Source: Anaeromyxobacter sp.
GTDB taxonomy: Bacteria > Myxococcota > Myxococcia > Myxococcales > Anaeromyxobacteraceae
Length of the DNA: 64,000 bases
Direction of reading: 5' to 3'
Assembly: GCA_049840735.1 (NCBI GenBank)
Contig: JASGJN010000020.1
Coordinates: forward strand, 480,001-544,000
In this document: positions 16,701-45,513 of the stretch, piece after piece
Layout of the letters: the number at the start of each line of letters is the position of its first letter
How positions within the stretch are numbered: position 1 is the stretch's first letter
The notes under the pieces: generated by a model
Database searches by the model: none
Told to the model about the DNA's origin: nothing
The model's input: the letters and a program-made list of their open reading frames with translations, nothing else
Position numbers and translations under genes: made by a program

Positions 16701-16709
16701 GTCGCCCCC

Positions 16710-19219: not shown

Positions 19220-19268
19220 TTGACACCTCTCGCGGGTCGCGATTTAGTTTGTTCGTCGAACGAACAAA
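19220..19268 (+). promoter_or_regulatory. Sigma70-type -35 (TTGACA) plus ROK-type operator TTTGTTCG-TCGAA-CGAACAAA
   Basis: TTGACA at 19220-19225 and perfect 8-bp inverted arms at 19248-19268. The element recurs at 32107 and 44167. Confidence 0.8.
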
Positions 19269-19371
19269 GTAGACGTTCCGAGGCCGCGGTGAGAGAACAC
19301 AAGCATTCGCGCCCAGTTGACCCCTGCCGGCGGCGCCGGTCGGGCCACCGTCCGGGCGGGGAGCACCACAC

Positions 19372-20349
19372 GTGACTGCGGCGGAACGTCATCCTCTCCT
19401 CCACGTCTCCGGCCTCCGGAAGAGCTTCCGCCAGGGCGGGGTGATCCGCGGGCGGACCTCGCTCCTGGCCGTGGACGACGTCGAGTTCCGGGTCGAGCGC
19501 GGCGAGGCGGTGGCGCTGGTCGGCGAGTCCGGCAGCGGGAAGAGCACCATCGCCCGCCTGCTGGTCCGCCTCGAGCAGGCCGACGCTGGCGCCATCCGGC
19601 TCGACGGCCGCGACGTGCTGCGCGAGGAGCCGAGGGCGGCCTCGCTGGCCTACCGGTCGCGGGTCCAGATGATCTTCCAGGACCCCTTCGGCTCGCTCAA
19701 CCCTTCGCACAGCGTGGCCTACCACCTGGAGCGGCCGCTCCTCCGCCACGGGCGCGCCACGCGCGCCGACGTGCGCGAGAAGACCCTGGCGCTGCTGCGC
19801 GACGTGGGGCTGGAACCTCCGGAGGAGTTCCTGGAGCGCCATCCCTACGAGCTCTCCGGCGGCCAGCGCCAGCGGGTGGCCATCGCGCGCGCCCTGGCGG
19901 TGGGGCCCGACCTGCTGGTGGCCGACGAGCCGACCTCGATGCTGGACGTCTCGCTCCGCAGCGGCGTGCTAGGGCTCCTGCAGCGGCTGCGCCGCGAGCG
20001 CGGCCTGGGGCTGGTGCTGATCACGCACGACCTGGCCGCGGCCCGCCACGTGGCCGACCGGCTGCTGGTGCTCTACCGCGGCCAGCTGGTCGAGGACGGC
20101 CCTGCCGCCGCGCTGATCGAGGCCCCGGCCCACCCGTACACCCGCGCGCTGCTGGCCGCGGTGGCCCACGGCCGCGCCGGCGAGCGCCCCCGGCTGCGTC
20201 ACGACCCGACCCCGGCCGCGGGCGGCTGCCCCTTCGCCCCGCGCTGCCCCGAGGTCACCGACCGCTGCCGCGCCGAGCCGGCGCCGCTGGTCACGCTCGG
20301 CGCCGGCCGCCGCGCCCGCTGCCACCTCGTCCCCGCCACCCGCGCCTAG
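19372..20349 (+). CDS. Oligopeptide/oligosaccharide ABC transporter ATPase (OppF/DppF-like)
   Basis: GESGSGKST, QMIFQDPF, LSGGQRQR, ADEPTSMLD, HPYT and GCPFAPRCP motifs. Confidence 0.9.
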   Translation: MTAAERHPLLHVSGLRKSFRQGGVIRGRTSLLAVDDVEFRVERGEAVALVGESGSGKSTIARLLVRLEQADAGAIRLDGRDVLREEPRAASLAYRSRVQMIFQDPFGSLNPSHSVAYHLERPLLRHGRATRADVREKTLALLRDVGLEPPEEFLERHPYELSGGQRQRVAIARALAVGPDLLVADEPTSMLDVSLRSGVLGLLQRLRRERGLGLVLITHDLAAARHVADRLLVLYRGQLVEDGPAAALIEAPAHPYTRALLAAVAHGRAGERPRLRHDPTPAAGGCPFAPRCPEVTDRCRAEPAPLVTLGAGRRARCHLVPATRA

Positions 20350-20367
20350 CGCCGCATCGGAATCCGC

Positions 20368-23300
20368 ATGACCTCCCCCTCCCCGCTCCACCTGGGCCAG
20401 ACCCCGCTCGCGCCGCCGCCCGGACCGGTGACGGGGCGGCTGACCGACGCCTTCGGGGAGCGCTGCTACGTGATCGAGAACGCCCAGGCGCTGCCACCGT
20501 TCCTGGTGAGCGTGGTGAGCGACGCCGATCACTGGCTCTTCGCGGCCAGCCACGGGCCGCTCTCGGCCGGCCGGCGCAGCCCCGCCACCGCCCTCTTCCC
20601 CTACGTCACCGAGGACCGGATCCACGACAGCGCCGGCCTGACCGGCCCGGTGGCCGCGCTCCGGGTCACGCGCGACGGCCGGACCCAGCTCTGGCGGCCG
20701 CTGCGCGCCGACGACGGCCTCGCCTACCGCGTGGTCCGCCGGCTCTACAAGAACGTGCTGGGCAACCGGCTGGTCTACGAGGAGGAGAACCTCGACCTGG
20801 GGCTGGTCTACCGCACCGGCTGGCAGACCAGCGCGCGCTTCGGGTTCGTGCGCGAGTGCGAGCTCCTGAACCGCGGCGGCCCCGCCGAGGTGGCGCTCCT
20901 GGACGGCCTGGTCAACCTCCTCCCGGCCGACGTGGACGACGCGCTCCAGGGCAGCCTCTCGGTGCTGGTGGACGCGTACAAGCGCAACGAGCAGGTGGCC
21001 GGGACCCCGCTGGCGCTCTATACGCTGGCGGCGCAGGTGGTGGACCGGGCCGAGCCCCGCGAGTCGCTGCACGCCACCACGGTCTGGAGCCACGGACTGC
21101 CGGCGGCGCGGATCCACCTGGAGGCCGAGGCGCTGCCCCGCTTCGAGCGCGGCCTGGCGCCGGCGCCGCAGGACGAGGTGCGCGGCCGGCGCGGGGCCTA
21201 CCTGGCGGAGGCGCAGCTGGCGCTCCCGGCCGGCGCCGGGGCCCGCTGGCTGATGGTGGCGGACGTGGCGCGGCCGCAGCACGCGGTGGCGGCGCTGGCC
21301 GATCAGCTGCGCGATGCGGCCGGCGCGGCCGAAGCGGTGCGGGCCGACGTCCGGCGCGGGAGCGAGCGGCTGCTGCGCATCGTGGCCTCCACCGACGGGC
21401 TGCAGCGCACCGCCGACGAGCTGGCCACCGCGCACCACACCGCCAACGTGCTCTTCAACGACCTGCGCGGCGGCGTCCCGGCCGCCGGCGGCGAGCTGCC
21501 CGGGCGCGATTTGGAGGCCCACGTCGCGCGGATGAGCGGCGCCGTCGCGCGCCGCCACGCCTTCTTCCTCGCCACCCTGCCCGACCTGGCCCCGCGGGCC
21601 GAGGTGCTGGAGCAGGTGGAGGCGCTGGGCGATCCGGACCTGCTGCGGCTCGTCCTCGAGTACCTGCCGCTCACCTTCAGCCGCCGCCACGGCGACCCCA
21701 GCCGCCCCTGGAACCGCTTCGACATCCACGTCCGCGACGCCGCCGGGCGCGAACGGCTGCACTACCAGGGGAACTGGCGCGACATCTTCCAGAACTGGGA
21801 GGCGCTGGCCCTCTCCTGGCCGGCGCTGGCCGAGGGGTTCGTGGCCCGCTTCGTGAACGCCTCCACCGCCGACGGCCACAACCCGTACCGGATCTCCAAG
21901 GACGGGATCGACTGGGAGACGCCGGATCCCGACCACCCCTGGGCCACCATCGGCTACTGGGGCGACCACCAGCTCATCTACCTGCTGCGGCTCCTGCAGG
22001 TGTCCCTGCGCCACCACCCCGAGCGGCTGCGCGCGCTGCTGGGGCGGAGCCTCTTCACCTACGCCGACGTGCCCTACGAGCTCGTCCCCTGGGACGAGAT
22101 TCTGCGCGACCCGCGCGCCACCATCCGCTTCGACGCGCCCAAGCACGCCCGGCTCGCGGCGCGCGCCCGCACCGAGGGCGCCGACGCGCGGCTGCTCCAC
22201 GGGCCGGACGGGCTCCACCGCGTGACGCTGGTGGAGAAGCTGCTGGTGCCGGCGCTGGCCAAGCTCGCCAACCTGGTCCCGGGCGGCGGGATCTGGATGA
22301 ACACCCAGCGCCCGGAGTGGAACGACGCCAACAACGCGCTGGTCGGGCATGGGCTCTCGGTGGTGACGCTCTGCCACCTCGAGGCCTACCTCACCTTCCT
22401 GCCCCAGCTGCTCGCCCCGCTGCGCGGGACCGCCGTGCCGCTCTCCCCGGAGGTGGCCGGCTGGGCCGAGGCCACGCGCGCCGCGCTGGAGGGGCACCTG
22501 GCGCTCCTCTCCGGCGCGCCGGACGACGCCGCCCGCGGCGCGCTGATGGCGGCGCTGGGACGCCCGGCCGGCGCCTACCGCCAGCGGCTCTACCGCCACG
22601 GCCTCTCCGCGCCGGCCCCGGCGCCGGTGGACGAGCTGCTGGCGCTGGTGGCGGTGGCGCTGCGCTTCGTGCGCGACGGCCTCGCGCGCAACCGGCGCGC
22701 CGACGGCCTCTTCCACGCCTACAACCTGCTGGTCCCGCGGGGCGCCTGCGCCTTCGGGATCGAGCCCCTCCCCGAGATGCTCGAGGGGCAGGTGGCCGCG
22801 CTGGGCACCGGGATGGTCGGCCCGGAGGCGGCGCTGGAGGTGCTGGCTGCGCTCCGCCGCAGCGCCCTCTACCGCGAGGATCAGCAGAGCTACACCCTCT
22901 ACCCGGACCGGCAGCTGCCGCGCTTCCTGGAGAAGAACGTGATCCCGGACGCGGAGCTGACCCGCGTCCCCGAGCTGGGGCGGCTGCTCGACTCCGGGGC
23001 CGGCCCCGGCGGCCCCATCCTCCGGCGCGACGCGCAGGGCAAGGTCCGCTTCGAGGCCGGGTTCCACAACGCCGACGCCTGCCGCGCCGCGCTGGAGGCG
23101 CTGCGCGAGGCGGGCCGGGCCGGGCTGGACGCCGCCGGGGTGGAGGCGGTCCTGGCCGCCTACGAGCGGGTCTTCAACCACCGCGCCTTCACCGGCCGCA
23201 GCGGCTCCATGTTCGCCTACGAGGGGCTGGGCTCCATCTACTGGCACATGGTGGCCAAGCTGCTGGTGGCGGTGCAGGAGCAGCTCTTCGCCGCCGCCGA

Positions 23301-23838
23301 CGCGGGCGCGGCGCCGGCGCTGCTGCGCCGCCTGGGCGACGCCTACGAGGCGCTGCGCGCCGGCGTGGGCGGGGCCGGGAAGCCGCCCCAGGTCTACGGC
23401 GCCTTCCCGCTCGACCCCTACTCGCACACGCCGGCCGGCGCCGGCGCGCGCCAGCCGGGCATGACCGGCCAGGTGAAGGAGGAGGTCATCACGCGCCTGG
23501 GCGAGCTGGGCGTCCGGGTGCAGGGCGGCCGGGTCCGCTTCCAGCCGCTGCTCCTGCGCCGGGCCGAGTTCCTGGAGGCCCCGGCCACGCTCGAGACCTT
23601 CGACCTGCGGGGCCAGCGGCTCCGGCTCCCGGTCCCGGCCGGCGCGCTGGCCTTCACCTACTGCCAGGTCCCGGTGATTTACCGCCTCGCCGCCACCCCC
23701 CGCGTCGAGCTCACCGCCGCGGACGGCGCGGCGCGCTCCTTCCCCGGCGACACCCTCGACGCCGCCACGTCGGCCGAGCTCTTCGGCCGCACCGGCAGCG
23801 TCCGCCTCCTCACCGTCGACACCCAGCCCGGCCGCTGA
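20368..23838 (+). CDS. GH149-type beta-1,3-glucan phosphorylase
   Basis: 1156 aa, no signal peptide. FSRRHGDPSRPWNRF, YQGNWRDIFQNWEAL, GIWMNTQRPEWNDANNAL, FTGRSG..FAYEGLGSIYWHM and DPYSHTP..QPGMTGQVKE motifs recalled from GH149. Beta-glucan context. Confidence 0.75.
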   Translation: MTSPSPLHLGQTPLAPPPGPVTGRLTDAFGERCYVIENAQALPPFLVSVVSDADHWLFAASHGPLSAGRRSPATALFPYVTEDRIHDSAGLTGPVAALRVTRDGRTQLWRPLRADDGLAYRVVRRLYKNVLGNRLVYEEENLDLGLVYRTGWQTSARFGFVRECELLNRGGPAEVALLDGLVNLLPADVDDALQGSLSVLVDAYKRNEQVAGTPLALYTLAAQVVDRAEPRESLHATTVWSHGLPAARIHLEAEALPRFERGLAPAPQDEVRGRRGAYLAEAQLALPAGAGARWLMVADVARPQHAVAALADQLRDAAGAAEAVRADVRRGSERLLRIVASTDGLQRTADELATAHHTANVLFNDLRGGVPAAGGELPGRDLEAHVARMSGAVARRHAFFLATLPDLAPRAEVLEQVEALGDPDLLRLVLEYLPLTFSRRHGDPSRPWNRFDIHVRDAAGRERLHYQGNWRDIFQNWEALALSWPALAEGFVARFVNASTADGHNPYRISKDGIDWETPDPDHPWATIGYWGDHQLIYLLRLLQVSLRHHPERLRALLGRSLFTYADVPYELVPWDEILRDPRATIRFDAPKHARLAARARTEGADARLLHGPDGLHRVTLVEKLLVPALAKLANLVPGGGIWMNTQRPEWNDANNALVGHGLSVVTLCHLEAYLTFLPQLLAPLRGTAVPLSPEVAGWAEATRAALEGHLALLSGAPDDAARGALMAALGRPAGAYRQRLYRHGLSAPAPAPVDELLALVAVALRFVRDGLARNRRADGLFHAYNLLVPRGACAFGIEPLPEMLEGQVAALGTGMVGPEAALEVLAALRRSALYREDQQSYTLYPDRQLPRFLEKNVIPDAELTRVPELGRLLDSGAGPGGPILRRDAQGKVRFEAGFHNADACRAALEALREAGRAGLDAAGVEAVLAAYERVFNHRAFTGRSGSMFAYEGLGSIYWHMVAKLLVAVQEQLFAAADAGAAPALLRRLGDAYEALRAGVGGAGKPPQVYGAFPLDPYSHTPAGAGARQPGMTGQVKEEVITRLGELGVRVQGGRVRFQPLLLRRAEFLEAPATLETFDLRGQRLRLPVPAGALAFTYCQVPVIYRLAATPRVELTAADGAARSFPGDTLDAATSAELFGRTGSVRLLTVDTQPGR

Positions 23839-23840
23839 CC

Positions 23841-25235
23841 ATGACCCGCCTGACCTTCCCCCCTGGTTTCGTCTTCGGCGCCGCCACCTCGGCGTTCCAG
23901 ATCGAGGGCGCACCGGCCGCAGACGGCCGCGGCGAGTCGATCTGGGACCGCTTCTGCGCCACCCCCGGCGCCATCGCCGACGGCACCGACGGCCGCGTGG
24001 CCTGCGACCACTACCACCGCTGGCCCGAGGACCTGGCCCTGATGCGCGAGCTGGGGCTGCAGTCCTACCGGTTCTCCATCAGCTGGCCGCGGGTCTTCCC
24101 GGACGGCGCCGGACCGGTCAACGCGCGCGGCCTCGACTTCTACGACCGGCTGGTGGACGCGCTGCTGGCGAACGGCATCGAGCCCTTCGTGACCCTCTAC
24201 CACTGGGACCTGCCGCAGGCCCTCGAGGAGCGGGGCGGCTGGGCCTGGCGCGGCGTGGTGGACCGCTTCGTGGACCTGGCCGACGCGGTGGCGGGCCGGC
24301 TGGGGGACCGCGTCACCCGCTGGGCCACCCACAACGAGCCCTGGTGCGTCTCGCACCTGGGCTACGAGATCGGGGCGCAGGCGCCCGGCCGGAAGGACCC
24401 GGCGGCGGCGCTGGCCGTGGCCCACCACGTGCTGCTCTCGCACGGCCGCGCGGTGCCGGTGATCCGGGCCCGGGCCCCGGGGGCGCAGGTGGGCATCGTG
24501 CTCAACCTGGTGCCGGCCTACCCGGCCTCTCCCAGCGCCGCCGACGCGGAGGCCACCCGCGCCTTCGACGGCTTCTTCAACCGCTGGTACCTCGATCCGC
24601 TCTTCCGCGCGCGTTACCCCGAGGACGCCGTCGCGGACCGGGTCCGGCAGGGTCACCTGCCGGGCCCGGTGCTTCCCTTCGTGGCCGAGGGCGACCTCGA
24701 GGCCATCTCCGCGCCCATCGACTTCCTGGGGGTGAACTACTACAACCGCGGCGTCATCCGCAGCAGCGCCGTCCCGGAGGCGGAGAACCTGCCCCGCACC
24801 CTGCCCCTCCCGCGCCCGGAGGAGCTGACCGACATGGGCTGGGAGGACGTGCCGCACGCGCTGGAGGACCTGCTGGCGCGGCTCTACCGCGAGTATCGCC
24901 CCCGCGCCCTGGTCATCGCCGAGAACGGCTGCGCCTACGCCGACGGGCCCGACGCGGCCGGGCGCGTGGCCGACGCCCGGCGGGTGGAGTTCCTGCGCGG
25001 CCACCTGGCCGCCTGCGCCCGCGCCGCGGCGGCCGGCGTGCCGCTGCGCGCCTTCTACTACTGGTCCCTGCTCGACAACTTCGAGTGGGCCCACGGCTAC
25101 ACCAAGCGGTTCGGCCTCATCCACGTCGACTACGCCACCCAGCAGCGGACCCCCAAGGACAGCGCGCGCTTCTACCGCGAGGTGATCGCGGCGCGCGCGG
25201 TGAACGAAGCCAGCAGCGAGGAGAAGCGCCCATGA
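23841..25235 (+). CDS. bglA: GH1 beta-glucosidase (cytoplasmic)
   Basis: FVFGAATSAFQIEG, THNEPW (acid/base), IAENG (nucleophile) and WSLLDNFEWAHGYTKRFG. Confidence 0.93.
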   Translation: MTRLTFPPGFVFGAATSAFQIEGAPAADGRGESIWDRFCATPGAIADGTDGRVACDHYHRWPEDLALMRELGLQSYRFSISWPRVFPDGAGPVNARGLDFYDRLVDALLANGIEPFVTLYHWDLPQALEERGGWAWRGVVDRFVDLADAVAGRLGDRVTRWATHNEPWCVSHLGYEIGAQAPGRKDPAAALAVAHHVLLSHGRAVPVIRARAPGAQVGIVLNLVPAYPASPSAADAEATRAFDGFFNRWYLDPLFRARYPEDAVADRVRQGHLPGPVLPFVAEGDLEAISAPIDFLGVNYYNRGVIRSSAVPEAENLPRTLPLPRPEELTDMGWEDVPHALEDLLARLYREYRPRALVIAENGCAYADGPDAAGRVADARRVEFLRGHLAACARAAAAGVPLRAFYYWSLLDNFEWAHGYTKRFGLIHVDYATQQRTPKDSARFYREVIAARAVNEASSEEKRP

Positions 25236-28200
25236 CCCGCACCCCGATCCGCGCCGCCCGACCGTGGCGGCCCCTCACCTCCCTCGCCGCCGGCCTGGCC
25301 GCCGCCGCGCTGCTGCTGGGCGCCGCCTCCGCCGCCGCCCAGGGCGCGCCCGCCCCCGGCGCGCCGGCCCGGCTCCCCGCGGTCCAGGTGGTCTCCGACG
25401 CCGGCGGCCAGCGGCTGACGGTGGACGGCAAGGACTTCCTGGTGGTGGGCATGAACTGGGACTACGTGCCCATCGGCCAGAACTACAGCTACAGCCTCTG
25501 GACGCAGCCGGACGAGGTGATCACCGCCGCGCTGGACCGCGAGATGCCGCTGCTGCGGGCCATGGGCGTGAACGCCATCCGCCAGTACGTGGGCATCCCG
25601 CCGCGCTGGGTCCGCTACATCCACGAGCGCTACGGCATCTTCACGGTGCTCAACCACACCGTGGCCCGCTACGGCTACACCATCGACGGCGCCTGGGTGC
25701 CGGAGAACAAGATCGACTACTCCGACCCGAAGCTCCGCCAGGCGGTGAAGGCCGAGGTGCTGGGCTACGTGGACCAGTTCAAGGACACCCCCGGCGTCCT
25801 GATCTGGCTGCTGGGCAACGAGAACAACTACGGCCTTCACTGGAAGTCGAGCGAGATCGAGGCGCTCCCGCTGGAGAAGCGGGACGAGGCCCGCGCCCGC
25901 TACCTCTACTCGCTGATGGGCGAGATCACCCTGGAGATCAAGGCCCGGGACGGCCGCCGCCCGGTGGCCATCGCCAACGGCGACGTGCAGTACATCGACC
26001 TCATCGCCCAGGAGTGCAAGGGGCTCGACATCTTCGGCGCCAACGTCTACCGCGGCGTCTCCGCGCTGGACCTGTTCCAGGTGGTGAAGGACCGCCTCGG
26101 CCTGCCGGTGCTCTTCACCGAGTTCGGCGCCGACGCCTACGACGCCAGGGCCGGGCGCGAGGACGACCTCCCGCAGGCGCGCTACCTGCTCGCGCAGTGG
26201 GAGGAGATCTACGAGCAGTCCGCCGGCAAGGGGCGGGTCGGGAACGCCATCGGCGGCCTCACCTTCCAGTTCAGCGACGGCTGGTGGAAGTACCGCCAGG
26301 AGGTGAACCTCGACCTCCACGACACCAACGCGTCCTGGCCGAACGGCGGCTACCTGTACGACTACGTGAAGGGCAAGAACAACATGAACGAGGAGTGGTG
26401 GGGGCTCTGCGCCAAGGGGCCGCCCGACGCGCAGGGGCTCTACGACCTCTACCCGCGCACCGCCTACTACGTCCTCCAGCAGGCCTACCGGCTCCCGCCC
26501 TACGGCGCGGGCACCAGCCTCGACGCCATCCGCGGCCACTTCGGCGCCATCGACCCCATCACCTACGCGCGCAACTACCGGAACGACAAGGCCGCCGCGG
26601 CGGCCGCCAGCACCGACAAGGTCCGGCTCAAGAACGTGGTGATGAAGTTCGAGACCTACTCCACCGGAGCGCAGGGCGACGTGGTCGCGGCCGACGGCCC
26701 GCCCCGCGGGTTCGACCACATGGAGTCCTTCTTCGCCACCGCCGAGGTGAAGCCCACCGAGCGCGTGGTGGCCGACCTCTCGCTGAACGTGCTGGGCCAC
26801 GTGGCCTCGAACCCCATCGACGAGATCTTCTACGAGCGGCGCGGCAAGCCGGTGACGCTCACCACCCCTGACGGCTCCACCACCATGGACGGCGTGGAGC
26901 GGGTCAAGATTTACGGCGCGAGCGTGGCCTGGGACGACGACTGGTTCCGCCTGGACGGCTTCTACCGCACCGGCCACTACCACTGGCAGGCCGAGGGCGA
27001 CTTCTTCGGCGTCTACCGCGAGGCCAACTACGGCCCCAACCTGGACACCTACAACGCCGACGCGCCGCTGGGCGTCGAGCTCGCCGGCAAGCAGGCGCTG
27101 GAGGGGTTCAAGATCGCCTTCGGCCCGCAGCTGTGGTGGGGCGCCAACCCGGCCATCGTGGGCAAGTACCGGGTGCAGCTGGGCCGCTTCGACGTGTCGC
27201 TGGTCCACCACGAGGACCTGGCCAAGCAGACCTCCTTCACCGCCTCCTCCTCCGTCCCGCTGCCGCCCACCCGCTCCACCAGCGTCTCGGTGGCCACCGA
27301 CCTCGGGCCCATCGCCGTCCGCGCCGGCGCCATCATGGGCGGCTTCAACAAGGTGGGCGACACGTTCCGCACCGACAAGGGCAACCTGGACGAGATCCGC
27401 AACAGCGACACGCTGGGCGGCAAGCTGAAGCTGCAGGTGGAGCGCGGCCGGTACCACTGGTACGCGCAGGGCGCGTACATGGGGCTGGTGGCCGACGGCG
27501 GCCCCACCTCCGAGCTGACCTACACCGGCTGGGCGCTGCGCGACAGCGGCTCCGGCAACCAGGTCAACGCCATGACCGGCGTGAACGTGATCCTGGGCGA
27601 CTGGCAGGTCGCCCCCAACGTCCTGTGGCAGAAGCCGCTGGAGGGACCGACCGGCAACCGCTGGATGCAGGAGAACAACCCGGAGCGCGCCGACGGCAAG
27701 CCGGACCCGTTCGCCGTGCGCGGCAACCGCGAGCTGGTCGGGGGCGAGGTGATCCTGGCCTACGACCCGACCCCCGCCACCTGGCTCTGGGCCTGGGACA
27801 GCGACGCCCGCGAGGACGCCAGGCTGGCCGGGTCGATCTCCTTCATCGGCCGGCACCAGCCGACCTCGATGGACAACGGCACCGGGTACCTCGAGGACGG
27901 CGTCACGCTCATCCCCATCGGCGCGCCGCCGGCGCACGACCTGTGGGAGATCCGGGCGCGCCTCATCTCCGCCGTGAGCCATGACCTGCGCATCGGCGGG
28001 CACGCGTGGGTGGGCACGGCCGAGCCGAACGGCTCCGCCACCCGGCTGGTGCACCGGCAGGGCGCGGACCTGATGGTCGGGTACAAGACCTTCCGGCTCT
28101 CGGCCTACGCCAAGCGCCAGGACTACGGCCCGTACGACTACCACCGCGACTTCAACATGACCTTCCCGCTGCAGCTCATGGGCGACGTGTCGTGGGGCGT

Positions 28201-29150: not shown

Positions 29151-29172
29151 CGGTGGTCCGAGCACACGGCGG

Positions 29173-32106: not shown

Positions 32107-32154
32107 TTTGTTCGCCGTACGAACAAATGCCTCTCATTGGGGGTCACCTGTCAA
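32107..32154 (-). promoter_or_regulatory. -35 TTGACA plus ROK-type operator TTTGTTCG-CCGTA-CGAACAAA
   Basis: Palindrome at 32107-32127 and TGTCAA at 32149-32154, 60 nt upstream of the GH16 start. Confidence 0.8.
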
Positions 32155-37120: not shown

Positions 37121-38785
37121 CGGTCACCCCCCGCCGGCCGCAGGTTCACCAGCACCAGCAGGCACTCGGGGATCTTGTTGGGCGAGGCGGCCGCGTAGGG
37201 ATCCTCGGCGCTGGGGAAGCCCTCCACCCGCTGCAGGTTGTAGGCGGCCCAGGACGGGTTGGGATAGAGCGGGATGGCGGGCGCCTGGTCGACGAAGATG
37301 GCCTCGAGCCGCTCCACCAGCGCGCGCTGCGCGGCCGGGTCGGCCTCGGTCTCGAAGGCGGCCAGCGCGCGGTCGGCCTCGGGGCTGCCGAAGCGGTGCC
37401 AGTTGCCGGCGGCGGCCACGCCCACCGGCCGCACCGTCGCGGAGCCCATCAGCCAGCGGTAGAAGCCGTACGGCGTCGGCCCCTCGTTGGACCACCCCAG
37501 CGACAGGTCGTACCGCCCCTCCTGCAGCCGCTGGAACCAGGCGCTGAAGTCGTAGGTCCGGACGCTCGCGTCCACCCCCACCTCGCGCAGCCCGCGCGCC
37601 ATCACCTGGGCGGCGCGCACCCAGTCCGACCAGCCGGAGACGGTGAGGATCTCGTAGGTGAGCGGCGTGCCGTCCGGCCGCCGGCGGATGCCGTCAGGCC
37701 CGCGCCCCAGCCCGGCCTCGTCCAGCAGCCGGTTGGCCTCGGCCACGTCGTGGTGGACCCAGGTGCCGCGCTCCACCAGCCCCGGGTCGCGCCAGCCGGC
37801 GTAGGCGTCGGAGAGCGCCGTGGCGTCGGCCGGGCGGCTGTAGCCGTAGAGCCCCACGTCGATCATCAGCTTGCGGTCGAGCGCCATGGAGAGCGCCTTG
37901 CGGACGCGGGCGTCGTCGAGCGGCGGGCGGGTGGTGTTGGGGTAGAGGAAGATGGTGCCGCCGATGAGCGGGAACCAGTAGCGGTGGTGGGCCGGATCCC
38001 GGGCCACGAAGGTCCGGTCGATGGCCGGCACGAAGTTGGCCGCCCAGTCCACCTCGCCGTAGACCAGCGCCAGGTTGGCGCGCTCGTTGGACGGGAGGGC
38101 CGGAAAGCGGAGCGCCTCGATGGCCGGCTTCCCCGGCTGCCAGTAGTGGGGGTTGCGCCCCAGCTCCCAGATTCTGGTTCTGGAAGACCCGCACCTGGGT
38201 GAACGGACCGGTGCCCACCGGGTCGGGGTTGGTGAACGTGACCGGGTCGGCCACCTTGCTCCAGACGTGCTCGGGCACGATGGGCCGGCCCACCAGCTCG
38301 TCGAAGCCGGGCAGGAACACCCGCTGGAAGGCGAAGTCCACGGTGCGGTCGTCCACCAGCCGCACGTCCTGGAGGAAGGCCCAGACGCCGCCGGAGTCCA
38401 GCGCCGGGAACCGCCGCATCAGCTGGTAGGTGAAGACCACGTCACGGGCGGTGAACGGAGCCCCGTCGGACCAGCGCACCCCCTCGCGGGTGGTGATGCG
38501 CACGACCCGGTTCCCCTCCCGCCACTCCCAGCGCTCCGCCAGCCAGGGCACCCGCTCGCCCTTGACGCTGTTGAAGACCACCAGCGGCTCGTGGATGCCG
38601 GCGGCGGTGGGCCAGGGGGCGCCGGCGCCGGGCGCGAGCGGGTTGAAGTTCCGGACCCAGGCCGAGGTCTGGTCCATCGAGATGGTGATCACGCCGCGTG
38701 GGGGCGGCGGCTTCTCGCGGACGCAGCCGGCGCCGAGGGCCAGGGCCAGCGCCGCGGCCGCCAGGCGGCGCGCGGCCGCGGTCAC
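37117..38785 (-). CDS. Family-5 ABC substrate-binding lipoprotein (oligosaccharide-binding type), +1 frameshift near 38171
   Basis: Lipobox GAGC, RNFNPL, WSDGAPFTARDVVFT, PVGTGPF and SGWSDW motifs. Removing one A restores QIWELGRNPHYW. Confidence 0.88.
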
Positions 38786-39618
38786 GGCTGCACCTCGCGG
38801 TAGACGCGGACGTAGTCGACCACCATCGAGGTCGGGAACGCCGTCGCGCCGGCGGGCGCGCCCACGAAGTAGCCGCCCACCGCCACGTTCAGGATCACGA
38901 AGAACGGGTGGTCGTAGGCCCAGGCCGCGCCGCCAGGCTGGTCGCCCTTCTCGACCGTCTGGTACTCGCGCCCGTCCACCAGCCAGCGGATGCGCTGGGC
39001 GTCCCACTCCACGGCGTAGACGTGGAAGTCGGCGTCGAGCCGGGGCGAGCCCACCAGCGACCAGGAGCCGGTGATCGCCTCGCCGCCGGAGTAGCCCGGC
39101 CCGTGCAGCGAGCCGTGCACCACCTGCGGGAACTGGCCCTTGTACTCCAGGATGTCGATCTCGCCGCAGGCGGGCCAGCCGACCTGCGGCTGGTTCGCCC
39201 CCAGCAGCCAGAAGGCCGGCCAGAGCCCCTGCCCCGACGGCAGCTGCACCCGCGCCTCGAACCGGCCGTACTGCTGCGAGAAGCGGCCCTGGGTCTTGAG
39301 GCGCGCGGAGGTGTACGCGTTCCCCTGGTAGCTCTCGCGGCGCGCGGTGATGAGCAGGTGCCCCTCGCCGTCCAGCGCGGCGTTCTCGGCGCGATCGGTG
39401 TCGTACTCCAGCTGGGCGTTGCCCCAGCCGCCGCCGCCCACGTCGAAGGTCCAGCGGGACGGGTCCGGGAGCTCGCCGGCGGCGCCGTCGAACTCGTCCG
39501 ACCAGGCCAGCTCGTAGGTCTTCGGCACCGGCTCCTCCACGGGGCCGCCCCCGCACCGCCCCCAGCCGGCCAGCAGCGGGAGGAGGACCAGGGCCAGGGT
39601 GCGGACGCGGGGCGACAT
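38782..39618 (-). CDS. GH16 laminarinase-type endo-beta-1,3-glucanase (single domain, exported)
   Basis: WSDEFDG, GWGNAQLEY, YTSARL, WPAFWLLG, EIDILE and ILNVAVGG motifs. Confidence 0.92.
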   Translation of the reverse strand: MSPRVRTLALVLLPLLAGWGRCGGGPVEEPVPKTYELAWSDEFDGAAGELPDPSRWTFDVGGGGWGNAQLEYDTDRAENAALDGEGHLLITARRESYQGNAYTSARLKTQGRFSQQYGRFEARVQLPSGQGLWPAFWLLGANQPQVGWPACGEIDILEYKGQFPQVVHGSLHGPGYSGGEAITGSWSLVGSPRLDADFHVYAVEWDAQRIRWLVDGREYQTVEKGDQPGGAAWAYDHPFFVILNVAVGGYFVGAPAGATAFPTSMVVDYVRVYREVQP

Positions 39619-40874
39619 CAGGACTCCAGGCGGCGGGGCGCCGCGAAGGGGAAGCGGGTCAGGTCGGCCAGCGCGGCCTCGAGGGCCAGCGTGGCGGCGC
39701 CCAGGGCGATGGCCCGGGCGCCGAGGGGGCTCGTGACGATGCGCGCGGCGGCCACGCTCGACACCAGCGTGCGTCCACGCACGGTGGCGCGCAGCGGCTC
39801 GAGCAGCGCCTCGCCCACGCGCGCCAGGCTCCCGCCCACGATCACCGCGGCGGGGTTGAGGAGGTTCAGGAGGCCGGCCACGGCGATGCCCAGGTGCCCG
39901 GCCGCGTCGCGCACCACGCGGAGCGCCAGCGGGTCGGCGGCCAGCGCCGCCTCCTCGATGCGGTCCAGGGAGAGCTCGCCGCGCGCGAGCAGGCTGCCCG
40001 GCGCCTCGGGCAGCAGCGCCGCCGCGCGCGCCACCAGCGCCTGCGCGCCGACCAGCGTGACCAGGCAGCCGCGCAGGCCACAGACGCACGGCGGGCCGTT
40101 GGGGTCGATGGCGAGGTGTCCGATCTCGCCGGCCACCCCGGTGGCGCCGCGGTAGATCTGCCCGCCGATGATCAGGCCCGAGCCGATGCCGGTGCCCAGC
40201 TTCACGTAGGCGACGTCCTGCACGCCCTGCCCTGCGCCCCACCAGCGCTCGGCCAGCGCGCCCAGGTTGGCGTCGTTGTCCACCAGCACCGGCACGCCGA
40301 ACCGCTCCTCCAGCGCCACGAAGCCGCCGCTGCCCTTCCAGGCCGGCAGCACCACGTCGGAGAGGCGGTCGGGATCGCGCGGATCGACCGGGGCCGGGAC
40401 CGCCACGCCAATCCCCACCAGCCGGTGCGGCCCCTGCCCCCAGCGCGCCAGGCACTCCTGGATGAGCGCCACGGCCAGGCTGCGGGTGCCCTCGGGGTCG
40501 GTGCGGACCGGATGCGCCCGGTCGGCCCAGGCCAGCACCTGGCCGCGCAGGTTGGTGAGGGCCACGCCGACGTGCGAGGCCCCGACGTCCACGCCCACCA
40601 GGCCGAACGCGTCGTCCTGGAACTGCAGCACGATGGGGCGCCGCCCGCGCACCGACTGCCCGGCCCCCACCTCCTGGACCAGGCCCGTGACGAGCAGCTC
40701 GTTCACGGTCTCGGACACGGTCGAGCGGGAGAGCTCCGTGCGCCGGGCGATCTCCGCCCGCGAGATGTTCCGCTCCGCCCAGATGAGCCGGAGGAGCGCC
40801 GCGGCGTGCGGCAGCCTGGGCGTCACCGCCGCCACCTCCACCGCCTCCGCCCCGCCCCTGCGCTGCCCCTGCAT
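39618..40874 (-). CDS. ROK-family transcriptional repressor (wHTH + ROK)
   Basis: ISRAEIARRTELSRSTVS HTH, GRRP linker, VDNDANLGALAE, GEIGH and CVCGLRGC motifs. GGAGG RBS. Confidence 0.93.
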   Translation of the reverse strand: MQGQRRGGAEAVEVAAVTPRLPHAAALLRLIWAERNISRAEIARRTELSRSTVSETVNELLVTGLVQEVGAGQSVRGRRPIVLQFQDDAFGLVGVDVGASHVGVALTNLRGQVLAWADRAHPVRTDPEGTRSLAVALIQECLARWGQGPHRLVGIGVAVPAPVDPRDPDRLSDVVLPAWKGSGGFVALEERFGVPVLVDNDANLGALAERWWGAGQGVQDVAYVKLGTGIGSGLIIGGQIYRGATGVAGEIGHLAIDPNGPPCVCGLRGCLVTLVGAQALVARAAALLPEAPGSLLARGELSLDRIEEAALAADPLALRVVRDAAGHLGIAVAGLLNLLNPAAVIVGGSLARVGEALLEPLRATVRGRTLVSSVAAARIVTSPLGARAIALGAATLALEAALADLTRFPFAAPRRLES

Positions 40875-40954
40875 GTGCGCCTCCGGTCTGCCCAGGCCTG
40901 CGTGGACCGGGCGGCGCCGCAGCGGCCGCCGCCCGGTCCCGAGCTGCTACGTGA

Positions 40955-43900
40955 CTACTTGTAGAAGTAGATGTTGTCCACCCACACCGAGGAGCCGGGG
41001 CTCCCCTGCAGCACCAGCTGCTCGAGGTGGGCGCGGGCCGTCGGGCCGCCCTGGAAGGCGGAGAACGGCACGTCGATGGAGACCCACTGGCCGGTGACGA
41101 GCGCGGGGCTGGTGACGGCGGTGAGGTTGAGCTGCCCCTCGCTGTCGTCCCCGCCGCCGAACTCGGCGTTCGCGCCGAAGTCCACCACCTTGAGGAGGAA
41201 CGAGGTGGCGTCGCCGGTCCAGATGTCCATGTGGACGTGGGTCATGGCGGTCGCGTCCACCGGGTGGCTCACGAACTCCACGCCGGCGTAGCCGAAGCCC
41301 GAGTACTTCTTGGCCGCGTCACCGGCGATGGTCACGTCGGTCACGGACGCCTGGCTCCAGGCCGCCAGCCAGCTGTCGACCGGCACGTTGTCGTAGGCCC
41401 CGGAGTAGAGGGAGATGACGTCCGTCGCGGTGCGCGCCGGCGGCGCCGGCGCGGCCGCCGTGGGCAGGCTCAGCCCCACCACGGTCACGGAGGTGAGGCC
41501 GTTCGCGGCCACGCCCTTGAACCTGGCCGTGATGTTGGTGGTGCCGGGCGCGACCGGGGTGATGACGCCGTCCGCGTCCACCGTCGCGGCGGCGGGGTTG
41601 GAGGACTCGTAGGTGAACCAGCCCGGGCCGACCGAGAGCACCTGGTGCCCGCCGGCGACGGCGTAGTCCAGCGACTGGCCCGCCACCGTGCCGGTGCTGC
41701 CGACGGTGATGGTCTTCGACTCCGTGGCGATGGCGGCCGCAGGCGCCCCGTAGGCGGACAGGTCGGCCACCTCGTACTGCACGTCGTCGAGCCAGATGAC
41801 CATGCCGCGGCCGAGATCCTGCGCCGCGTCGGCCACGAAGAAGACGCCCGGCTCGGCCGTGAGCTTCGAGGGGTCCGGCAGCGGGATGGTGAACTTCTGC
41901 CACTCGGTGGTCAGCGCGGCCTGGTGCCAGCTCACGGCGTAGGGGCTGGCGCCGTTGCGGTCGCCCAGGCCCACGCTGTCCAGCAGGTTCGGGTCGGTGG
42001 CCTTCGCCCAGAAGGTCAGGGCGTTGAAGCCGGACAGGTCGCGCGGCGCCGAGGCCAGGAACGCGCCGCCGATGTAGGCGCCGGGGCCCGGGACCGGGAC
42101 GAACATGCTGGCCGTGCCGGCGTGGTTGACGTTCGCGTCGGACGACGGGGCGCCGGCCGAGCCGCCGAAGGGCGAGTAGGCGAGATCGGTGGCCAGGGCG
42201 TCGTCGAAGACGGTCCCGCCGCCGACGGGAGGCTCCTCACCGGTGGTGTACAGGTAGACGTTGTCCACGTAGACGGTGGAGGAGGAGGACGAGAGGACGA
42301 GCTGGGCCAGGTGCGCCCGCGCCGCCAGGCCGCTGAACGCGGTGAGCGGGACGTCGACGGAGACCCACTGGCCGGTGGCGATGCCGTCGGTGACCACCGA
42401 GCCCTCGGTGTCGTCGCCGCCGCCGTAGGCGCCGTCGGCCCCGAAGTCCACCAGCTTCACGTCGACGTGGGTCGCGTCCGGCGTCCAGGCGTCCAGGTGG
42501 AAGCGGGTCATGGCCGTCGCGTCCACGGCCGGGAACTCGACCCCGGCGAACTGGAGGCCGGTGTACTTCTTGGCCGCGTCGCCGGCGATCTGGAGGTCCT
42601 CCACCGCGGCGCTGTCCCAGTCGGCCGACCAGGTGGTGACCGGCAGCTCGGCGTAGGCCCCGGAGAGGAGCGCCTTCACGTCGGCGGCGTCGCGGGCCGG
42701 CGGCGTGGGCGCCGGGGTGGAGGGCGTGGGCAGCGGCTCGGCGTCGCCCACGTAGAGGTACAGGTTGTCCAGGTAGACGGTGCTGTTCGAGCCGGAGAGG
42801 ATCACCTGCGCCAGGTGGGCGCGGTGGGTCAGGCCGGCGAAGCGGCTGAGCGGCACGTCGATGGAGACCCAGGTGTCCTGCGCCAGCGCCGGGCTGCTGC
42901 TCCCGTCGAAGATCAGCTCGTGCTCGGCGTCATCCCCGCCGCCGTAGGCGCCGTCGGCGCCGAAGTCCACCAGCTTCACCTTGATGAGCGTGGAGTCGTG
43001 CGTCCAGACGTCCGCGTGGAAGCGGGTGGTGGCGCTGGCGTCCACCGGCGGCAGCTCGATGCCGGCGTAGAGCAGGTTGGAGTACTTCTTGACCGGATCC
43101 GAGAAGAGCGCCAGGTCGGCCACGTCGGCCGAGTCCCACTCCGCCGACCAGGTGGTGACCGGCACGGCGGCGTAGGCGTCGGAGAAGAGCGACACCACCT
43201 CGGCCGCCGGGCGGGCCGGGGGCACCGGCGCCGCGCTGGCCGGCATGTTGGCCTCGCTGACGTTGACGGTCAGGGCGCCCTGGGCGTCCACCGTGCCCAG
43301 CCGGGCGGTGATGACGGCCGTGCCCACCGCCTGCGCGGTGGCCAGGCCGTCGGCGTCCACGGTGGCCACGTCCGCGGCGGAGGAGGAGAAGGTGAGATAC
43401 CGGGCCGACATGGACTCGGTCACCGGCACGTTGTTCACCGGGAAGGTGACCGTGATCTCGCTCACCTGGGCGGTCGTCCCCACCTCGCGGGCGACGGTCT
43501 CCTCCTTGATGGACGGCACCGGCGCGCCGAGCACCGAGGCGTCCAGCGCCTCGAACTTCATGTCGTCGAGCCAGAGGGTGTAGCCGCCGGTCTCCGCCTC
43601 TGCGAAGTAGAAGAGCCCGGCCTCGGACGCGAGCACCGAGGGATCGGGGAGCGGCAGCACGACCTTCTGCCAGTCGGTGCCAACCGCCAGCTCGCCGAGG
43701 TGGACGTCGTGCGCGACGTTGCCGGTGTTGTCGTTGCCGAAGCCCACCACGTCCACCGTGGCCGGCGCCGAGGCCTTGGCCCAGAAGGTCAGGGCGTTGA
43801 AGGTGCGCAGGTCGCGCGGCGAGGTGGACTTGAGCACGCCGCCGGTCCAGCCGGTGGTGGGCACCCCGATCCGCAGCGAGGCGCTGCCGGCATGGGCCAC

Positions 43901-44092
43901 CGTGGTGTCCTTGCCGAGGTCCGCGACCGCCCCGTCCCCGAACATCTCGAACGTGACGCCGCTGGCGAACTCGTCGTCGAAGACCTTGTCCAGCACCTCG
44001 GGCTTGGGGGCGGACTCGCCCTTGCAGCCGATCAGCATGAAGGCTGCGAGCGCCGGGACGGCGAGGCTCGACAGCCAGTTCCGAGAAGTCAT
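40955..44092 (-). CDS. Large repeat-containing surface lipoprotein, putative beta-glucan-binding (2 type-A modules + 2 Ig + 3 type-B modules)
   Basis: Lipobox LIGC. Two VFDD...RDL..FNALTFWAKA...WQK...PLPDPS modules and three AP.PPAR...V.SL.S.AY...VDFGA.G..GGGDD...W.S.DVP...DN.Y.Y modules. No catalytic motif seen. Confidence 0.75.
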   Translation of the reverse strand: MTSRNWLSSLAVPALAAFMLIGCKGESAPKPEVLDKVFDDEFASGVTFEMFGDGAVADLGKDTTVAHAGSASLRIGVPTTGWTGGVLKSTSPRDLRTFNALTFWAKASAPATVDVVGFGNDNTGNVAHDVHLGELAVGTDWQKVVLPLPDPSVLASEAGLFYFAEAETGGYTLWLDDMKFEALDASVLGAPVPSIKEETVAREVGTTAQVSEITVTFPVNNVPVTESMSARYLTFSSSAADVATVDADGLATAQAVGTAVITARLGTVDAQGALTVNVSEANMPASAAPVPPARPAAEVVSLFSDAYAAVPVTTWSAEWDSADVADLALFSDPVKKYSNLLYAGIELPPVDASATTRFHADVWTHDSTLIKVKLVDFGADGAYGGGDDAEHELIFDGSSSPALAQDTWVSIDVPLSRFAGLTHRAHLAQVILSGSNSTVYLDNLYLYVGDAEPLPTPSTPAPTPPARDAADVKALLSGAYAELPVTTWSADWDSAAVEDLQIAGDAAKKYTGLQFAGVEFPAVDATAMTRFHLDAWTPDATHVDVKLVDFGADGAYGGGDDTEGSVVTDGIATGQWVSVDVPLTAFSGLAARAHLAQLVLSSSSSTVYVDNVYLYTTGEEPPVGGGTVFDDALATDLAYSPFGGSAGAPSSDANVNHAGTASMFVPVPGPGAYIGGAFLASAPRDLSGFNALTFWAKATDPNLLDSVGLGDRNGASPYAVSWHQAALTTEWQKFTIPLPDPSKLTAEPGVFFVADAAQDLGRGMVIWLDDVQYEVADLSAYGAPAAAIATESKTITVGSTGTVAGQSLDYAVAGGHQVLSVGPGWFTYESSNPAAATVDADGVITPVAPGTTNITARFKGVAANGLTSVTVVGLSLPTAAAPAPPARTATDVISLYSGAYDNVPVDSWLAAWSQASVTDVTIAGDAAKKYSGFGYAGVEFVSHPVDATAMTHVHMDIWTGDATSFLLKVVDFGANAEFGGGDDSEGQLNLTAVTSPALVTGQWVSIDVPFSAFQGGPTARAHLEQLVLQGSPGSSVWVDNIYFYK

Positions 44093-44166
44093 CGGGTTTC
44101 TCCCATGAGCTGCACGCGCGCGCTGTGGCTGCCGGCCTGACGCTCCCCCGGACAGCGCCGAATTTG

Positions 44167-44212
44167 TTTGTTCGGCGTACGAACTATTTCGCGACCGGAC
44201 TGCGCATGTCAA
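44167..44212 (-). promoter_or_regulatory. -35 TTGACA plus ROK-type operator TTTGTTCG-GCGTA-CGAACTAT
   Basis: Near-palindrome at 44167-44187 and TGTCAA at 44207-44212, 75 nt upstream of the lipoprotein start. Confidence 0.75.
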
Positions 44213-44400
44213 GGAGCGCGGTTCAGGATTTGTGAATCAGCGGATTTATGGCTGTATAAACAGCATGTTACGCTGCGGATCGCCGGATCTGGTCAGCGCT
44301 CGCACGGCCCCGCACTGCGGCAGCGCCGCGCAGCGGCATCCTAACCCGAGAGAGCCAGATGAAGCACCCGACCAAGCCGCGCGGCCGCGCCGGCCCGAGC

Positions 44401-45513
44401 TCAATCGATGCGGGCCAGCTGCTCCAGCGCGAACGCGTAGGCCCCGAGCGCCATGGCCTCGCTGGTCCCCAGCCGCGAGAGCCCCACGCCCGTCCGCCGG
44501 AGCGGATCATAGGGCACGGTCCGGCCGCCCGGGCCGACCGGGATGCGGCGCACCTCACCCTGGAAGAAGGCCGCCCGCTCGCGCGAATCCTCGAGATCGT
44601 AGGGCCTCGCCAGCAGCCTCGGCTCCTCCCGTCCGTCCAGCCAGCGCAGCCGGCCGCGCATCGCCTCCAGCAGCGCCGGCAGCAGGTGCGGCGCCGCCGC
44701 CGAGAGCCCCCCACCCAGCACCACCAGCCCGTCCATCACCGCCACCGCCGTGGCGATGGCGTCGCCGGCCACCGCGCCCATCGCGCGCCAGGCCTCGCGC
44801 GCAGCGTCCCGGTCACCGTCGGCGGACCCGTCGGCGATGGCGGCGATCACCTTCGGCTCCGGCGCGTGCTCCGGCGCCAGCCCCGCGCGCTCGGCGTAGA
44901 CCCGCCGCACGGCGCGGATCGACGCGCCCTCCTCGACGAACACCCCGCGCTGCTCCGGGTGGCGCAGCGTCCAGACCTGCGCGGCGGCCGAGTTGTCGCC
45001 CCGCAGCAGGCGCCCGTCCACCACCAGCCCGCCGCCGAGGCCGGTGCCCAGGGTGAAGCCGATCAGCGTGCCGAAGCGGCGCGGCGCCCCGGCCGCGGCC
45101 AGCTGGCCGTTCACCCAGGGCAAAAGCCCGCCCAGCGCCTCGCCGTACGCGAAGAGCGCGCCGTCGTTGTTGATGAAGACCGGGAGCCCGAAGCGCTCCT
45201 CCAGGAGCGGCCCCAGCGCCACGCCGCCGCGGAAGGCCGGCAGGTTGGGCAGGTCGCCGATGATGCCGTGGGCGTAGTCGGCCGGCCCGGGGAAGGCGAA
45301 GGAGAGCGCCACCGCCGACCGGCCGGTGGACTGGTGCACCGCCTCGAACCCGTCCAGCAGCTGCCCCAGGCAACGGTCCAGGTCGTCGCCCAGCGTGGGC
45401 ATGCGCAACGGCTCCAGCACGGCCCGGCCGCCCTGCACGGCGTTGAAGCGGAAGCTGGTCCCGCCCGCGTCCACGGTCAGGACCACCCGCCGGTCGTCCC
45501 GCAGCGTCAGCAT
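44401..45513 (-). CDS. ROK-family sugar kinase (no HTH)
   Basis: TVDAGGTS ATP motif, FAFPGPADY, INNDGALFAYGE and TLGTGLGGG. Confidence 0.85.
   Translation of the reverse strand: MLTLRDDRRVVLTVDAGGTSFRFNAVQGGRAVLEPLRMPTLGDDLDRCLGQLLDGFEAVHQSTGRSAVALSFAFPGPADYAHGIIGDLPNLPAFRGGVALGPLLEERFGLPVFINNDGALFAYGEALGGLLPWVNGQLAAAGAPRRFGTLIGFTLGTGLGGGLVVDGRLLRGDNSAAAQVWTLRHPEQRGVFVEEGASIRAVRRVYAERAGLAPEHAPEPKVIAAIADGSADGDRDAAREAWRAMGAVAGDAIATAVAVMDGLVVLGGGLSAAAPHLLPALLEAMRGRLRWLDGREEPRLLARPYDLEDSRERAAFFQGEVRRIPVGPGGRTVPYDPLRRTGVGLSRLGTSEAMALGAYAFALEQLARID

Follow-up and report, generated by a model that had tools for sequence, protein, structure and literature searches.

The window analysed here is a 64,000-nucleotide stretch (positions 480,001–544,000 of contig JASGJN010000020.1) from the assembly of an Anaeromyxobacter sp. 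(GCA_049840735.1; 6.67 Mb, 26 contigs, 94% complete, ∼ 74% GC). It contains a locus of 14 genes that, judged from its sequence, is very probably a β-1,3-glucan regulon. One of these genes encodes a 1041-residue protein, denoted P0001, in which a predicted glycosidase is joined to a predicted outer-membrane β-barrel. The genes form two converging arms, four on the plus strand (19372–28357) and ten on the minus strand (45513–29608), with a spacer (∼ 28360–29600) between them; gene calls and Pfam agree on this layout, which had been given in a preliminary description of the same stretch. The plus arm runs from an OppF-type ATPase through GH149 and GH1 (GH, glycoside hydrolase) to P0001, the minus arm from a ROK kinase through a lipoprotein, a ROK repressor, a GH16 enzyme, a solute-binding protein (SBP), two permeases and an ATPase to two more GH16 enzymes. 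The features are:

19220..19268, plus strand: left-arm promoter; TTGACA at 19220–19225, operator (19248–19268) overlapping −10/+1, matrix score 41.0, the best of the genome.
19372..20349, plus strand: ATP-binding cassette (ABC) ATPase, OppF type (Pfam ABC_tran, oligo_HPY).
20368..23838, plus strand: GH149 β-1,3-glucan phosphorylase, predicted cytoplasmic (match to PDB 6HQ6; EWNDANNAL kept).
23841..25235, plus strand: GH1 β-glucosidase without signal peptide (Pfam 1.1e-157; NEP and ENG motifs).
25232..26620, plus strand: N-terminal part of P0001, with signal peptide, clan GH-A TIM barrel and helix 442–459 (AlphaFold2 model, fold matches).
26621..28357, plus strand: C-terminal part of P0001, a predicted 24-strand outer-membrane β-barrel and candidate glucan channel (models, enzyme-free relatives).
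29608..32047, minus strand: third GH16 lipoprotein, with two Ig domains and C-terminal modules resembling carbohydrate-binding modules (CBM) (Pfam, N-terminus).
32107..32154, minus strand: second promoter and operator (operator 32107–32127, TTGACA 32154–32149).
32253..34130, minus strand: GH16 lipoprotein with Big_2 domains (Pfam, N-terminus).
34232..37120, minus strand: OppB permease (37120–36137), OppC permease (36140–35178) and OppD ATPase (35185–34232) (Pfam).
37117..38785, minus strand: family-5 solute-binding lipoprotein (Pfam SBP_bac_5; best PDB match 1ZTY).
38782..39618, minus strand: core GH16 lipoprotein of laminarinase type, conserved in the cassette (PDB 2HYK; 45 of 80 loci).
39618..40874, minus strand: ROK-family repressor with helix–turn–helix (HTH) and ROK domains (Pfam; 42 of 80 loci, all ten myxobacterial regions).
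40955..44092, minus strand: lipoprotein with two Ig-like domains and three ∼ 150-residue repeats (Pfam, N-terminus).
44167..44212, minus strand: third promoter and operator, driving the right arm (operator ∼ 44167–44187, TTGACA 44212–44207).
44401..45513, minus strand: ROK glucokinase, upstream of the third promoter and without operator (PDB 3MCP, E = 2.2e-119).

Pfam confirms the GH1 enzyme, one ROK protein with and one without an HTH domain, SBP_bac_5, two permeases and two ATPases. Among the locus's 16 translated pieces it detected no plug, TonB-receptor barrel or SusD domain, and there is no susC–susD pair among the 14 genes, in agreement with the preliminary description, which had seen neither a TonB-dependent receptor nor SusD. 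The GH149 protein aligns over residues 20–1150 with a characterised phosphorylase (PDB 6HQ6; 957.6 bits, E = 8.5e-287), is homologous to Pro_7066 over its full length and keeps the WNDANNAL catalytic-loop motif, within which the catalytic Asp presumably lies; its assignment as a phosphorylase of β-1,3-gluco-oligosaccharides is supported by sequence. All three GH16 enzymes have lipoprotein-type N-termini and an E-x-D-x-x-E motif (EIDILE, EIDAME, EIDIAE). The closest solved relatives of the core GH16, the one of the three searched against the PDB, are β-1,3-glucanases and laminarinases (2HYK, E = 3.6e-81), and the C-terminal part of the third GH16 is matched in 1 of 80 related loci (described below). 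For the SBP, the PDB search placed a chitin-oligosaccharide binding protein of Vibrio first (1ZTY, E = 4.9e-46). The repeat lipoprotein (40955–44092) has no PDB sequence match, and its neighbours in the Atlas are unnamed and most commonly from Bacteroidota. It is a probable surface glycan-binding protein, and its build (lipoprotein, Ig-like domains, repeats) agrees with that of the laminarin-binding Cf-SGBP (CBMxx, 10.1101/2023.09.07.556657; this and all papers below are cited from excerpts of their text). The GH149-type phosphorylase, GH1, three exported GH16 enzymes with intact motifs, ROK repressor and uptake step by a family-5 ABC importer that had been proposed are all supported by Pfam, motif and PDB matches, as is β-1,3-glucan as the substrate class (GH149 and laminarinase-type GH16 matches).

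The three promoters share an operator, TTTGTTCG-N5-CGAACAAA, which was discovered by reading the promoters and was not among the top families of a repeat search. It is exact at 19248 and 32107 and has two mismatches at 44167, and a TTGACA box lies ∼ 22 bp upstream of each copy; two exact copies were reached by none of 100 shuffles. With up to three mismatches allowed, the pattern occurs in 66 of 80 related loci, as against 2 of 80 after base shuffling. From 161 sites of other genomes, picked with the window's own consensus, we derived a matrix (5th percentile of the training scores 23.2) that gave 41.0, 29.3 and 23.6 for the window sites and at most 15.0 for the rest of the genome. ROK proteins bind palindromes, and BglR of Thermotoga maritima governs a laminarin/β-glucoside operon (PMC3553997). 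An HTH–ROK protein together with a conserved palindrome over the promoters supports a single ROK-repressed regulon. The preliminary description had all genes tied together by this operator, which holds for the three promoters but not for the ROK kinase: the gene of this 3MCP-like protein, which carries no operator itself, lies upstream of the third one, and it turned up in none of the 80 related loci and none of the 10 myxobacterial regions. We therefore rejected it as a core member of the cassette, and it probably lies outside the regulon. A distant TonB-dependent receptor under the same operator, an arrangement at odds with the preliminary description, was looked for and is absent from the 94% complete assembly. 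The genome has six plug-domain matches, none bearing the operator, and no match to SusD; as the matrix finds the three locus sites only, we rejected a co-regulated receptor elsewhere in the assembly.

P0001 belongs to a family in which 5475 of 8000 scored candidates are full-length; the best 119 others are 55–62% identical to it over 94–100% of its length. In the AlphaFold2 model of the whole protein (predicted local distance difference test, pLDDT, 84.0; predicted template-modelling score, pTM, 0.82) the signal peptide is followed by a clan GH-A TIM barrel (residues ∼ 51–440) and a helix (442–459). N196–E197 and E297 are invariant in 120 of 120 aligned sequences, and their layout, with the acid/base after strand 4 and the nucleophile on strand 7, fits clan GH-A. 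The closest folds are GH158 (Foldseek E = 2.4e-13; Z 26.8), GH157 (Z 28.2) and GH2 (Z 27.1). Sequence-profile matches are weak (GH2 1YQ2, E = 3.8e-6; 6PAL, 1.1e-4; 9ORO, 2.7e-3), and Pfam GH2_C scores 20.7 bits, below its cut-off of 21. We predict a GH157/158/2-like glycosidase. The endo-β-1,3-glucanases of GH158 (6PAL, 9ORO) and GH157 (9FZ9) share the fold but are 13–22% identical to the P0001 domain, and their solved members are soluble or lipoproteins without a barrel. The preliminary description had thus recognized the clan GH-A enzyme, in keeping with its fold and catalytic residues, but had overlooked the ∼ 580 residues that follow it. Longer fusions with extra N-terminal domains also exist (P0124, 1351 residues; P0211, 1218 residues, with CBM_4_9 first).

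Residues 464–1040 of P0001 form 24 predicted strands over ∼ 580 residues, connected by short turns on one side and by long loops on the opposite one; modelled alone from 72 sequences the domain gave a pLDDT of 80.8 and a pTM of 0.78. Strand hydrophobicity alternates in 22 of the 24 strands across the 72 homologues (counted without a shuffled control). The signal peptide, the even strand number, the amphipathic strands and the one-sided short turns of the model are all features expected of an outer-membrane barrel, and all Foldseek matches listed for the domain are outer-membrane barrels. Five loops rich in W, Y, D and R, four on the long side and one on the short side, have conservation values of 0.81–0.98, versus 0.80 for the enzyme and 0.69 for the strands. 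The domain has no Pfam family and no PDB sequence match; in the Atlas it falls into unnamed clusters, with a weak lead to DUF6029 (0.94, 164 features). On the model, we consider it very probable that the C-terminal domain is an outer-membrane barrel.

Pfam found neither PF07715 nor PF00593 on P0001, and the model has no plug, just the helix between the enzyme and strand 1; lacking a plug and having 24 strands instead of 22, it was rejected as a TonB-dependent transporter. Fimbrial ushers have a 24-strand barrel with an inserted plug, periplasmic N- and C-domains, and chaperone and pilin genes. The usher pore FimD is the top VIA match (Z 14.4, root-mean-square deviation (rmsd) 6.1, 352 aligned residues, 8% identity), followed by PapC (Z 12.8), but the barrel alone matches and the locus has no chaperone or pilin genes, and we rejected this class as well. 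Identities in the VIA matches are 4–11%; maltoporin (Z 10.7) and chitoporin (5MDO, Z 10.0) stand amid many barrels that score alike, and no porin family matches in Pfam. AlgE and PelB are also among the fold matches and GH149 is reversible, which would suit a barrel that exports or remodels a self-made glucan in a locus for capsule or storage-glucan turnover. The 14 genes, however, include no glucan synthase or other glycosyltransferase by Pfam, and they do include a binding-protein importer, a sugar-sensing repressor and a surface binding lipoprotein; we find this reading hardly credible.

Classical autotransporters have a C-terminal barrel of 12 strands and ∼ 250 residues. A barrel of ∼ 580 residues with twice that number of strands and no Pfam autotransporter match was rejected as a member of that class. 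In a looser, autotransporter-like arrangement the barrel would be an exporter or anchor, with helix 442–459 threading the lumen and the GH-A domain outside, and oligosaccharides would use general porins, or a TonB-dependent receptor not linked to the locus, to enter. An 18-residue helix directly before strand 1 recalls the autotransporter architecture, the best fold matches are protein-secreting pores, and the coexistence of SusC/D with the fusion in 2 of 20 Bacteroidota regions (below) would fit. A myxobacterial outer-membrane barrel glucanase, GluM, is moreover known (PMC10800785). The doubled strand number and the conservation of the loops, equal to that of the active-site domain, argue against an anchor.

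Barrels without any enzyme bear most directly on this question. A search with the barrel profile yielded 582 representatives (E ≤ 0.001), and six of the 14 fetched from the best 150 are proteins of 564–598 residues in which a signal peptide precedes the barrel and the last residue is F; the members of one cluster are named as Pseudomonadales or Oceanospirillaceae proteins. Among the best 80 of 256 metagenome relatives (one frameshift fragment of a fused gene removed), 49 are fused, 21 are enzyme-free and 10 are open at the 5′ end. All 21 enzyme-free barrels start with a hydrophobic leader followed by RG-x-D, and a family-5 ABC importer or GH16 adjoins 15 of them. At 85% identity these loci form 12 groups, ten with ABC or GH16 neighbours and two on contigs below 5 kb. 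In L148 a glucokinase, the barrel, SBP, permeases, ATPases, GH1 and GH16 follow one another on one strand; in L137 the order is SBP, permeases, ATPases, LacI, barrel and GH16. The retention of barrels without a passenger in importer operons leads us to prefer a channel over a mere anchor, and the autotransporter-like arrangement is in our view unlikely. The RG-x-D mature N-terminus (P0184, P0189, P0194, P0205, P0220, P0234; L137–L159) matches ARGD in the linker-helix consensus of the fusions; we speculate that this segment could be a periplasmic gate like the N-terminus of chitoporin.

From the model and these relatives, we infer that the barrel is likely the entry channel for the glucan. The preliminary description had left outer-membrane passage to another route. 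No TonB receptor is indeed present in the locus, but the step is probably encoded within it, by the GH-A gene itself.

The fused form is widespread. Of 401 Myxococcota genomes examined, 92 have the barrel, host included. Within the genus it occurs in 2 of 22 further genomes, within the family in 9 of 67, and in a sister family with genomes of 8–14 Mb, probably the Myxococcaceae, in 61 of 178; two genera reach 21 of 21 and 24 of 32. From the 91 other positives we selected 10, favouring long contigs and a wide spread, and in their 35 kb regions the fusion, GH1, GH16 and ROK are present in all ten, an ABC importer in seven, a major facilitator superfamily (MFS) transporter in three and GH149 in seven. 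Across 80 named related loci, many on truncated contigs, GH1 occurs in 60, GH149 in 46, GH16 in 45, the lipoprotein in 44 and ROK in 42; the inner-membrane step is ABC in 32, MFS in 21 and both in none. The closest GH149 and lipoprotein in this set are from an Anaeromyxobacter sp. (1184 and 520 bits; the rest at most 931 and 390). Pfam applied to 78 cluster representatives of 166 large unlabelled open reading frames (ORFs) revealed a TonB-dependent receptor in one (L056) of these 90 neighbourhoods, a sum of the 80- and 10-locus sets, which may overlap. The Pfam scans replaced an earlier, insensitive test with the genome's six receptors as queries, which had given one marginal match. A further 80 metagenome loci contained no TonB-dependent receptor (Pfam, 34 representatives of 77).

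Cassette and operator also occur in loci of Eisenbacteria, Krumholzibacteriota, Zixibacteria, Gemmatimonadota and Ignavibacteria, and GH149 with a COG0747 ABC importer is published (GH149 type I clusters, PMC5827456). The system is therefore not a hybrid of Bacteroidota and Thermotoga traits peculiar to Myxococcota, as had been suggested. Among 301 Bacteroidota genomes sampled, 36 have the barrel. In each of 20 regions of 35 kb (from 35 other positives, chosen for long contigs) a homologue of the lipoprotein directly follows the fusion, then GH16 and GH149, and 18 of the 20 have no SusC/D pair within the 35 kb (scan of 77 of the 81 representatives, the four left out being short). The fusion thus usually sits where the importer is expected, yet it can coexist with SusC/D.

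We propose the following scheme. The repeat lipoprotein would bind glucan at the cell surface and the GH16 lipoproteins would cleave it to oligosaccharides, which would diffuse through the 24-strand barrel independently of TonB. The fused GH-A domain, most likely periplasmic under the pore, would trim them, and the family-5 ABC importer would move the trimmed products inward. In the cytoplasm GH149 would yield glucose-1-phosphate and GH1 glucose, and glucose or a short oligomer may release the ROK repressor. The logic would be that of the Vibrio chitoporin or maltoporin routes, a specific outer-membrane channel followed by an ABC importer. As for the side on which the enzyme sits, the barrel begins and ends on the side of the short turns, and the enzyme would consequently be periplasmic unless the helix threads the pore; a complex prediction of the enzyme domain with the barrel (score 0.10) was used neither for nor against. 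Alternatively, the enzyme could sit outside, atop the channel, and feed its cut products in. The position of the most conserved loops, on the presumably outer side that bears the long loops, and the presence of endo-acting β-1,3-glucanases among the closest folds would suit such a unit, but its helix would have to pass through the pore and partly block it, and the surface GH16 lipoproteins already provide endo-cleavage; we think it quite unlikely. Taken as a whole, with a periplasmic enzyme, our scheme is moderately probable at most.

Several observations weigh against it. The C-terminus of P0001 (YVNIGL) ends in IGL instead of an aromatic residue, whereas F is the last residue of many homologues and of the enzyme-free forms; the amphipathic pattern is weak in strands 1 and 4; and the fold matches are loose (rmsd 4–9, template-modelling (TM) score ≤ 0.38) and silent on function. 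The enzyme-free barrels are ∼ 25% identical to P0001, shorter and known from sequence without models, and none of their 21 loci has GH149. Many neighbourhoods are truncated contigs and the receptor scans were limited to cluster representatives of large ORFs. SusC/D stands beside the fusion in 2 of the 20 Bacteroidota regions, by which we rejected a barrel that always replaces SusC/D, and a lone TonB-dependent receptor in two more; variant 1 laminarin polysaccharide utilization loci (PULs) are said to carry susCD (PMC10108472). Finally, the frameshift that the assembly shows in the SBP gene may mean that this strain has no working importer.

The frame of the SBP gene switches near 38170–38180 and that of the third GH16 gene near 30860–30870. 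Together with the presence of the barrel in just 2 of 22 other genomes of the genus, this could mean that the cassette works in relatives and decays in this strain. Operators and catalytic residues, however, are intact, and outside the locus four frame changes were counted in 25 orthologues over 28.8 kb, a rate at least as high as that inside. An acyl-CoA ligase-like gene (10188–13250) and a phosphoketolase-like gene (49468–52004, minus strand) of the window also look frame-split, in line with indel errors in the assembly. Since the SBP gene is a single open frame in close relatives and the rate outside the locus is comparable, the frame changes in both genes are likely sequencing errors, and we give decay little credence.

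As a pathway, the locus follows a known logic. The Vibrio chitin pathway proceeds through ABC and phosphorylase steps. There, too, a specific TonB-free outer-membrane channel feeds a family-5 binding protein, but ChiP is a 341-residue trimeric porin without an enzyme, in contrast to the ∼ 580-residue, 24-strand barrel fused to a glycosidase (PMC5768706). The GH149 type I clusters of Proteobacteria combine GH149, an SBP (COG0747), two permeases, two ATPases and a regulator with no TonB-dependent receptor; as described in the excerpts they have neither an outer-membrane transporter nor an extracellular laminarinase, and their regulators are LacI or AraC (Kuhaudomlarp 2018, PMC5827456), whereas the present locus has three GH16 enzymes, the fusion, the binding lipoprotein and a ROK repressor. 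Bacteroidota clusters of carbohydrate-active enzymes without susCD were already published in the same paper. Variant 1 laminarin PULs of marine Bacteroidota share GH149, GH16 and a surface binding lipoprotein but are read as SusC/D systems with MFS, GH17 and GH30 (PMC10108472, PMC13188888, PMC6246565); our locus has ABC, GH1 and ROK and no SusC/D. Beside GH149 and GH16, laminarin PULs contain a highly expressed gene labelled GH0 (PMC10108472), or one labelled GH2 (PMC13188888) or GH158 (10.64898/2026.01.10.698779). Our Bacteroidota regions have the fusion at that place, and the published GH0 and GH2 genes may be the fusion gene; the excerpts of PMC10108472, PMC13188888 and PMC6246565 mention no barrel on them. 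A GH17–MFS fusion provides a precedent for joining enzyme and transporter at the inner membrane (PMC6246565). The BglR regulon of T. maritima likewise couples a ROK repressor, freed by glucose and cellobiose, and a palindromic operator to a laminarin/β-glucoside operon, but its operator sequence differs, and the excerpt mentions no GH149 or barrel fusion (PMC3553997).

The outer-membrane component, on the other hand, is of an undescribed family. GluM is a TonB-dependent-receptor-like protein. Like P0001 it is a myxobacterial outer-membrane β-barrel, from Corallococcus sp. EGB, with glucanase activity on fungal walls, but it is a β-1,6-glucanase (PMC10800785), whereas P0001 has no plug and a separate TIM-barrel enzyme; the two were set apart by description. 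Our search, confined to the open-access literature (subscription papers lying outside it), turned up no description of the barrel or of the operon in Myxococcota, as the preliminary description had supposed.

Some neighbouring features deserve mention. Two small lipoproteins (184–193 and 223 residues) directly follow the fusion in myxobacterial operons of two families (L123:17665–18884, L131:17398–18644); absent from the window, they are candidates for a lid or partner of the barrel. OppC and OppD are fused into a ∼ 585-residue gene in three operons of myxobacteria with large genomes (L123:10246–12009, L125, L128) in whose 35 kb GH149 was not found. A protein of ∼ 1150 residues without a Pfam match lies upstream in L020, L022 (3564–7025) and L024, where GH149 was not found either, and is possibly another phosphorylase. 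A di-haem oxidoreductase (DHOR), possibly an oxidative partner, recurs beside β-glucan loci (L062:5284–7719, L128:9022–11247, L199:3248–5728), with CBM56 in two. Many large neighbour proteins in L001–L080 carry an FlgD-Ig tail, suggesting export akin to type IX secretion (T9SS) in Eisenbacteria and Krumholzibacteriota. In the window itself, the 1.2 kb spacer between the arms contains two tandem arrays (14 bp × 11.8 at 28562–28729; 9 bp × 26.6 at 29170–29409), and no promoter or terminator pattern was found there. Genes of lower third-position GC content (GC3) at 15179–19039 (minus strand), presumably akin to myxobacterial secretion-system effector/immunity modules, adjoin the left promoter, and a CUT2-like (ribose-type) sugar ABC cluster, read from translations, lies ∼ 10 kb upstream (6747–9342, minus strand).

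Interpretations of glycan uptake in diderm bacteria rely almost entirely on SusC/D and TonB-dependent receptors, and a laminarin locus that lacks these is regarded as incomplete. Extrapolating from the model, we tentatively suggest, as an idea that may well prove wrong, that the barrel founds a new and widespread class of TonB-independent polysaccharide importer, a 24-strand pore of a width that would let long or branched β-1,3-glucan chains pass, with a glycosidase beneath that cuts the chains and makes diffusion one-way; it might serve many Bacteroidota and Gammaproteobacteria as a main gate for laminarin, and predatory myxobacteria as the entry path for fungal-wall glucan. Should glucan enter through the barrel, a gene annotated as GH2, glycosidase or hypothetical would encode a transporter for one of the most abundant glucans, and fungus-preying myxobacteria would possess a compact glucan operon with an unusually large pore from a family without a solved structure.

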